From: Eledone cirrhosa
Lineage: Eukaryota
NCBI GenBank assembly: GCA_964016885.1
Contig: OZ024740.1
Coordinates: 80,228,001 to 80,292,000 of the forward strand
Direction of reading: 5' to 3'
DNA length: 64,000 nt
The translations under genes were made by a program, and so were the position numbers. Shown piece after piece: positions 34,661 to 35,316 of this stretch (position 1 is its first letter; every line of letters starts with the position of its first letter). The notes beneath the pieces are model-generated. The model was not told the DNA's origin, ran no database searches, and was given only the letters and a program-made list of their open reading frames with translations.

Positions 34661-34667
<7 letters not shown>

Positions 34668-35314
34668 TAAAATAACAGATTAAAGTTTAAGCAAAGAATC
34701 GCTGCTTTCACTCTTAACGGGATCTTCTGAAACTAACAAGGTCAATCTGTAAACGCAGAAGTGGATATTTCAAAAAACGTTGCAACCGAAGGAAGACAGG
34801 AAGACGATACTTTGGTTCGTGGAAACGTTCCCTGGCAAAGAACGGGAAAAAACGAATTATCAGGAGTTTTAGGTATGTTTTCCTGCTTGGTACGGGTATG
34901 TTCTTTGTAGAAATATGCAGATGTTTCTGCATGATGAATATAAGTCAATAGAGTGCTCAACCGAGGGAGCCAAATAGTAATAATAATAAATTTGAAGACT
35001 AAAATCCAAAGATGGCTCGATAAGGATAAATATAATCAAATATATAAGAACCGTAGAGCAAATATTTATTAAAATAACAGATTAAAGTTTAAGCAAAGAA
35101 TCGCTGCTTTCACCCTTAACGGGATCTTCTGAAACAAACAAAGTCAATCTGTAAACGCAGAAGTGGATATTTAAGGGTGAAAGCAGCGATTCTTAACTTA
35201 AACTTTAATCTGTTATTTTAATAAATATTTGCTCTACGGTTTTTATATATTTGACATATATTTATCCTTATCGAGCCGTCTTTGGATTTTAGTCTTCAAA
35301 TTTATTATTATTAC

Positions 35315-35316
<2 letters not shown>
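34661..35316. mobile_element. Family B tandem (402 bp period) plus inverted arm; non-autonomous PLE derivative
   Basis: 34663-34770 repeated at 35065-35172; 34975-35118 inverted at 35171-35316; minus ORF begins MQKHLHISTKNIPVPSRKTYLKLLI. Confidence 0.88.
35077..35152 (-). ncRNA. Type I hammerhead with CAGAAGA core (family B); second copy 34675-34750 (-)
   Basis: acagattga..gttt-CAGAAGA-tccc gttaa gggt-GAA-AGCA gcgattctt TGCT-T-aaac t ttaatctgt. Confidence 0.75.

Follow-up and report, generated by a model that had tools for sequence, protein, structure and literature searches.

A family-wide A4 variant of the hammerhead core in a Hydra-clade Penelope-like element family of Eledone cirrhosa

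The window, a 64,000-nucleotide stretch of microsatellite-rich animal DNA, harbors at 34661–35317 an insertion of a repeat family, here termed family B, that is nested in (TA)n directly behind the remnant of another Hydra-type Penelope-like element (PLE). That neighboring remnant, at 33482–34560 on the plus strand, retains the end of a reverse transcriptase, a GIY-YIG region, and a hammerhead-like CTGAGGT motif near 34528, and is interrupted by frameshifts and stops. Read on the minus strand from 35173 to 34661, the family B locus comprises a first ribozyme, a tail that extends to a long 3′ end, a 5′ UTR, 25 codons, a 3′ UTR, a second ribozyme, a short 3′ end, and (TA)n. The two ribozyme cores are spaced by the 402-bp period that an earlier note on this DNA had assigned to the monomer. 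Its parts are as follows.

35317–35347 and 34568–34660, unstranded: (TA)n target, right and left flank, as read in the sequence
35171–35317, plus strand: inverted 5′-truncated arm that starts at loop II, reaches the long 3′ end, and enters (TA)n
35075–35153, minus strand: predicted type I hammerhead, copy 1, with core CAGAAGA at 35131–35125, a stem II of U-U plus 3 bp, GAAA, and a 5-bp stem III
34974–35074, minus strand: tail 3′ of hammerhead 1; its last position, 34974, is the long 3′ end, at which most copies enter (TA)n
34933–34973, minus strand: PLE 5′ UTR of about 41 nt, joined behind the long end in a partial tandem
34858–34932, minus strand: first 25 codons of a Hydra-clade PLE ORF
34857–34858, minus strand: deletion joint between ORF start and 3′ UTR, a minority form
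34752–34857, minus strand: 3′ UTR 5′ of hammerhead 2, holding the subfamily-diagnostic positions
34673–34751, minus strand: predicted type I hammerhead, copy 2, with core at 34729–34723, a private stem II mismatch at 34712, and a predicted cut after 34689
34661–34672, minus strand: short 3′ end, running into (TA)n

The locus is a partial tandem with a deletion of the ORF after codon 25 and an inverted arm. In hammerhead copy 1, an extended stem I pairs 35152–35144 with 35085–35077, and the cut is predicted between 35091 and 35090. For comparison with further copies, 4 of 23 listed runs were mapped on one monomer (34665–35065): X1 contigs, which may come from the source sample itself, and X21 raw RAD reads, both from organism A, X5 contigs from organism B, and X6 contigs from organism C, of which 16,258 contigs, 14,942 reads, 22 contigs, and 40 contigs, respectively, were placed. 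The junction between the tail and the 5′ UTR, read in the window sequence, recurs in record 8 of X1, which spans 34859–34991 with just 18 letters on the tail side.

The peptide MQKHLHISTKNIPVPSRKTYLKLLI, which the earlier note had likened to the start of some PLE ORFs, is encoded at 34932–34858 on the minus strand, and its PLE origin is borne out by blastp, profile, and tblastn comparisons, all of which place it at the N terminus of Hydra-clade PLEs. Against the full-length protein P0097, blastp gives an E value of 4e-7. The peptide matches positions 3–38 of a 119-protein profile with an E value of 4.6e-4 among 2694 window fragments (15.8 bits; 0 of 2000 shuffles reach this score, the best attaining 5.2 bits), and in the tBLASTn comparison with PLE proteins that had been suggested as a check, 99 of the 119 match. 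This protein set was reached with HMMER from the neighboring PLE remnant (33846–34172) through P0097 to its relatives, and consists of 120 listed proteins minus one of 1086 aa. The motifs RW[KR], DKT, and CxCx5C are present in 116, 114, and 116 of the 119 matching full-length proteins, respectively, which supports assignment to the Hydra clade, as RWK, DKT, and CxCX5C, together with insertion into (TA)n, are hallmarks of that clade (PMC8557442). In family B itself, the deletion at this locus has removed the part of the ORF in which these motifs and the C-terminal GIY-YIG would lie. Close similarity between the family B peptide and Hydra proteins stops at codon 25; the likeness to the Hydra N termini of the published supplement was judged by eye. 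The peptide alone has no match in a word-indexed protein search or in Pfam, the neighboring PLE fragment likewise has none in the word-indexed search, its relatives being found with full HMMER, and Pfam has no family for any of three full-length proteins. One X5 contig covers 34858–34962 with one other letter and then continues with 10 further in-frame codons, QKTDAFIKRL, which match the Hydra stretch just ahead of RW[KR]. With regard to the autonomous parent sharing this pLTR that the earlier note had proposed to look for, it is the ORF that is found to continue, in frame and in this one contig; the contig ends short of the ribozyme, and a full-length A4-bearing parent was not seen.

Family B is present in the window at six loci with eight ribozyme-containing segments, a count that replaces the earlier estimate of about seven loci.

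27942–28125, unstranded: head-to-head arms meeting at GAAA, with the short end on the left and the long end on the right
28211–28306, minus strand: core at 28283–28277, UUU triplet, and a small inverted long end
29219–29358, unstranded: truncated within the core, with an inverted long-end arm
34661–35317, minus strand plus an inverted plus-strand arm: the partial tandem with two ribozymes
44508–44723, plus strand: core at 44565–44571, with the long end terminating both arms
55930–56139, plus strand: second subfamily, core at 56071–56077, with upstream sequence like that of the majority form

Five of the six loci are head-to-head pairs inside (TA)n, and in four a short end is paired with a long end; on the element, these 3′ ends lie 89 nt apart. 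Loose ends at 34974, the long end, are found in all four runs (148 contigs in X1 and 530 reads in X21). The Hydra-clade target, (TA)n, flanks every inspected 3′ end at all six loci, and the pLTR or partial tandem with inverted truncated arms is likewise an arrangement of Hydra-clade PLEs. These sequences identify family B as the 3′ end of a Hydra-type PLE that has entered (TA)n in the form of head-to-head arms.

Described previously as the most abundant family in this DNA, family B keeps that rank among the hammerhead-bearing families counted and loses it to an unrelated SINE-like repeat of 150–380 bp, which occurs at 12 loci (1–375 and 11 further, up to 59166) and in which ARAGORN detects no tRNA. 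Canonical CTGANGA hammerhead-like cores mark no fewer than three additional inverted repeat families in the window, one grouped at 29880–30071, 37202–37272, 40388–40591, and 44290–44495, with further groups at 36369–37106, 53803–54570, 57088–57220, and 59358–59796, and at 62034–62370. A related Hydra-type remnant with two opposite arms lies at 10903–11679 and contains a CTGAGGA hammerhead-like motif at 10940 on the minus strand. Elsewhere, a U6 snRNA copy at 52113–52215 on the plus strand (95.9 bits) has a 3-nt deletion at the ACAGAGA region and is probably a pseudogene; inspection of the translations by eye assigns LINE-like reverse transcriptase/endonuclease ORFs and the remnant of a mariner-like transposase to 674–5629 (minus strand, nearly intact), 47550–50396 (minus strand), 41500–43757, 13656–14990, 6598–7990, and 52996–53607.

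In terms of the ribozyme core, the motif CAGAAGA occurs 14 times in the window, where 7.2 occurrences are expected, and five of these lie within family B, at 28277–28283, 34723–34729, and 35125–35131 on the minus strand and at 44565–44571 and 56071–56077 on the plus strand, each followed by a TCCC-loop-GGGTGAAAGC-like sequence. All five window segments that keep position 4 have A there, in agreement with the fixed CAGAAGA core that had been proposed. A hammerhead descriptor that leaves position 4 free detects six type I folds in the window, of which three belong to family B, compared with 0.03 per shuffled window (30 shuffles). The descriptor misses CCGAAGA motifs beside (TA)n at 61394–61830 and 58856, one of them near an inverted repeat, which are possibly U4C-type or decayed cores.

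We use the established hammerhead core numbering and the established terms U-turn and NUH. The family B fold has a stem I (AGUUU/AAACU) lengthened by a 9-bp helix past a U-rich bulge, the CAGAAGA core, a stem II composed of U-U and three G-C pairs and capped by a 5-nt loop, then GAAA, a stem III of 5 bp, and a CUU triplet. The predicted fold thus places three stems around C3 to A9 and G12–A14, A15.1–U16.1, and NUH, as in a type I hammerhead; the letter at the position of U4 in the CUGA uridine turn is A4. The previous description of stems and CUU triplet as intact in every copy is correct in that the core is kept and a type I fold is possible, and incorrect in that each window copy carries private damage. 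In the copy at 28283 the triplet is UUU and the extended stem I has no 5′ arm, the copy at 35131 has lost one stem I pair, and the extended stem of the 56071 copy has decayed. A C-A mismatch disrupts stem II at 34712 in the copy at 34729 and is private to it, another letter accounting for 92% of the X1 depth and for all of X5 and X6 at this position. In the four family B copies folded, the hammerhead lies 5–11 kcal/mol above the minimum free energy (MFE) structure and is never itself that structure, and the MFE z-scores, −0.7 to −2.0, are weak. The Rfam hammerhead models do not match family B at the gathering score or at E values up to 10; because they also miss the CTGA copies in the window, this result says little.

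The mapped runs also bear on the fixation of A4. A canonical U4 in family B would appear as T>A at 34728 of the mapped monomer, and no T>A of 2% or more is found anywhere on the monomer in X1, X5, or X6, which supports the family-wide U4A that had been put forward for checking against a genome consensus. In the X21 raw reads, T>A reaches at least 2% at 13 places, 1 of the 13 being among the rows listed, and these reads may include a minor U4 fraction. Among the 40 of 196 rows of the variant table that were listed, one falls in 34676–34736, and it is the private change of the window copy. The variant table reveals two subfamilies, with the 56071 copy having several letters of the second one. 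Compared with the copies at 34.7–35.1 kb, the 56071 copy differs at 24 of 110 positions upstream (22%) and at 0 of 41 positions from C3 to the cleavage site (Fisher p 3e-4). As the subfamilies share A4 and are identical from C3 to the cut, A4 predates the subfamily split, and the ribozyme region is conserved. By this comparison A4 is ancestral to family B, and the conservation suggests selection, a recent exchange of 3′ ends being less likely. Between subfamilies the stems are conserved and the U-rich bulge is variable. The family-wide A4 core variant in a Hydra-clade PLE is real, with A in nearly all copies examined.

Hydra-clade PLEs (Craig et al. 2021, PMC8557442) resemble family B in their KNIP-type N terminus, (TA)n targets, and inverted 5′-truncated arms. 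Their type I hammerhead likewise lies close to the 3′ end, has U-U where stem II begins, and often carries U at the cut. In contrast to the Hydra rows of that paper, family B has a CAGA core, a G-C pair at 15.2–16.2 (CUU triplet), and a longer stem-loop III. The 26 Hydra ribozyme rows of its File S2 all have CTGA, a count that is partly circular as the rows were found with a canonical descriptor, and all have C at 15.2; U precedes both stem II and GAA in 14 of the 26 and stands at the cleavage site in 10. These frequencies indicate that U-U and U17 are features of the clade and that A4 and G15.2–C16.2 are departures in family B, which has no canonical CUGANGA hammerhead and is a variant rather than a typical member. 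The PLE hammerhead variants of Cervera and de la Peña (2014, PMC4209133) are similar in being type I ribozymes in a pLTR with family-fixed core variants (U3–A8) and low activity in vitro; unlike the compensated U3–A8 pair, A4 in family B has no evident partner, and helix III is present. Natural core variants on record include U4C, A6C, and U15.1–A16.1 (PMC3088659). The viroid U4C, which lowers activity yet is viable, and the phage A6C (Perreault 2011, PMC3088659; PMC7151607) are likewise natural variants of the CUGA turn that are less active in vitro, but are single isolates, whereas family B is an animal retroelement family of high copy number that has become fixed for a purine at position 4. 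No natural U4A core was found in the literature searched; Lunse et al. 2017 (PLE variants) and Figure 5A and the supplements of Perreault 2011, which lie beyond it, could contain one. Passages of PMC11014351, PMC3376415, PMC13725137, PMC6765202, PMC6155905, and PMC7151607 add nothing on U4A. Pattern-scan matches at 15 metagenome and 9 viral loci were discarded as chance, since blastn finds none like the element, stems I and III are missing from 23 of the 24, and Rfam has no match in the 5 of these 24 loci that were tested.

The earlier note had taken the 402-bp unit for an internally deleted PLE that amplified as such, a view with which the mapped runs disagree. The depth over the ORF start is about 30-fold lower than over the 3′ UTR in X1, about 8-fold lower in X21, and zero in X6; depth is not copy number, and RAD reads are biased, yet depth falls abruptly at either edge. 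The ORF-start segment (34858–34973) has no second copy in the window and is thus present at one of the six family B loci. Most of the loose ends lie at 34856/34857, in 48 and 37 contigs of X1 and in others of X5 and X6; they continue like the sequence upstream of the 56071 copy, and most copies exit the monomer exactly at the deletion joint. Together, the depth drop, the loose ends, and the continuation of the X5 contig into the ORF establish the deletion as a minority form and the 402-bp deleted monomer as incidental; the one X5 contig further points to a parent ORF that exists at least in organism B. Two low-depth joints (34816–34860 and 34828–34865) tie the 3′ UTR to the ORF start in three X1 contigs, so similar deleted forms may occur elsewhere. 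The 56071 copy has no trace of the ORF over the roughly 390 nt that precede its core, so the majority form, too, could be a non-autonomous derivative. A joint that "goes back 401" was dismissed as evidence for a tandem, being merely the ribozyme entering its own tail across the edge of the mapped 34665–35065.

It is very improbable, then, that the 402-nt deleted unit is a non-autonomous retrozyme that is cut at its two ribozymes, circularized, and amplified in that form. The 402-nt spacing of the two ribozymes at 34661–35317 is what such a model would predict, the UTR/ORF-start joints, at their low depth, also fit it, and non-LTR retrozymes have been reported as PLE derivatives of like size, noncoding units of ~400 bp that resemble this locus in having a hammerhead in two successive units (bioRxiv 10.64898/2026.07.22.740005). 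Unlike the units described there, the 402-bp unit of family B is a minority form in which an ORF start is retained and which terminates in an inverted arm; it is not an amplified, tandemly repeated monomer, and, beyond the single window locus, the depths, and the loose ends given above, none of the listed pieces spans it. More weight, though it too is unlikely, attaches to the view that the ribozyme is catalytically dead and that its sequence persists because the PLE protein uses it for binding or as a folding signal. Single changes in CUGA leave low activity, with no rescuing double mutant but the C3–G8 swap (PMC9901934); cleavage is dispensable for insertion by the anole PLE in vitro, where ribozyme mutants were without effect and the ribozyme cleaved only with protein (PMC11167929); and Naiad PLEs proliferate without canonical hammerheads (PMC8557442). 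In copy 35131, an inactive A4–U11.1 helix reaches a probability of 0.47, versus 0.00 with U; as a general feature this inhibitory helix was rejected, as it forms in one of four copies. The depth does not drop at the predicted cut, nor do insertions ending there pile up in the mapped runs, but read-through of the cut presumably occurs in genomic copies of canonical PLEs as well, and neither observation discriminates. Loss of catalysis is harder to reconcile with G5, G8, G12, A13, A14, and A15.1–U16.1 all being kept between subfamilies, or with the G-C at 15.2–16.2, where the 26 Hydra rows have C at 15.2 and which indicates that the pairing is kept. At the other extreme, a ribozyme made fully active by contacts between loop II and the stem I bulge, by a neighboring core change, or by dimerization would account for an A4 that stayed fixed in both subfamilies while the family expanded very greatly, and for conserved stems beside a subfamily-variable bulge; other natural core variants have activity on record (PMC3088659). 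We consider it distinctly unlikely, given the lack of CUGA-region rescue noted above and a stem II of just three pairs. Dimerization through the palindromic stem III found no support, the self-duplex of −12.9 kcal/mol being matched by 451 of 5000 shuffles and therefore not significant.

The low activity of single CUGA changes, combined with PLE insertion without cleavage in vitro, makes slow or assisted cleavage by the A4 ribozyme the most likely case. We thus favor, at a probability of roughly one half, the reading that family B, as the 3′-terminal part of a Hydra-clade PLE with an A4 hammerhead, likely spreads by means of its parent's reverse transcriptase and endonuclease, the ribozyme probably cutting slowly or with help. 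The parent protein would nick (TA)n and prime cDNA at either of two AU-rich sites 3′ of the ribozyme, on RNA that may still be uncut at the family B ribozyme. Two internal starts of reverse transcription, which explain the "tail" of the anole PLE (PMC11167929), would here give rise to the short and long 3′ ends. Depth halves across 34707–34748, and many opposite-strand (inversion) joints begin at 34717–34734, which suggests that reverse transcription often stops in the 5′ half of the ribozyme. Halting in or just past the ribozyme would yield the short head-to-head insertions, and a jump during reverse transcription could produce the ORF deletion and the 402-bp arrangement. The ribozyme sequence would be under purifying selection, with loss of the U-turn uridine lowering its rate. 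A stronger proposal, which we regard as unlikely, is that tertiary contacts or the Penelope protein rescue a natural hammerhead without the U-turn uridine, so that it cleaves fast enough to be of biological use, and that CUGANGA-based searches overlook entire high-copy ribozyme families of this type.

The hammerhead is called universal in Hydra and other canonical PLEs, yet is dispensable for insertion in vitro. Family B has changed the core uridine while keeping every other core position, and has spread widely in at least three organisms. Given that its cutting is likely slow, it may serve as a natural test of whether PLEs need self-cutting to spread. If the A4 ribozyme cleaves, the accepted core consensus would be too narrow; if it does not, the fold would be kept for a non-catalytic role.
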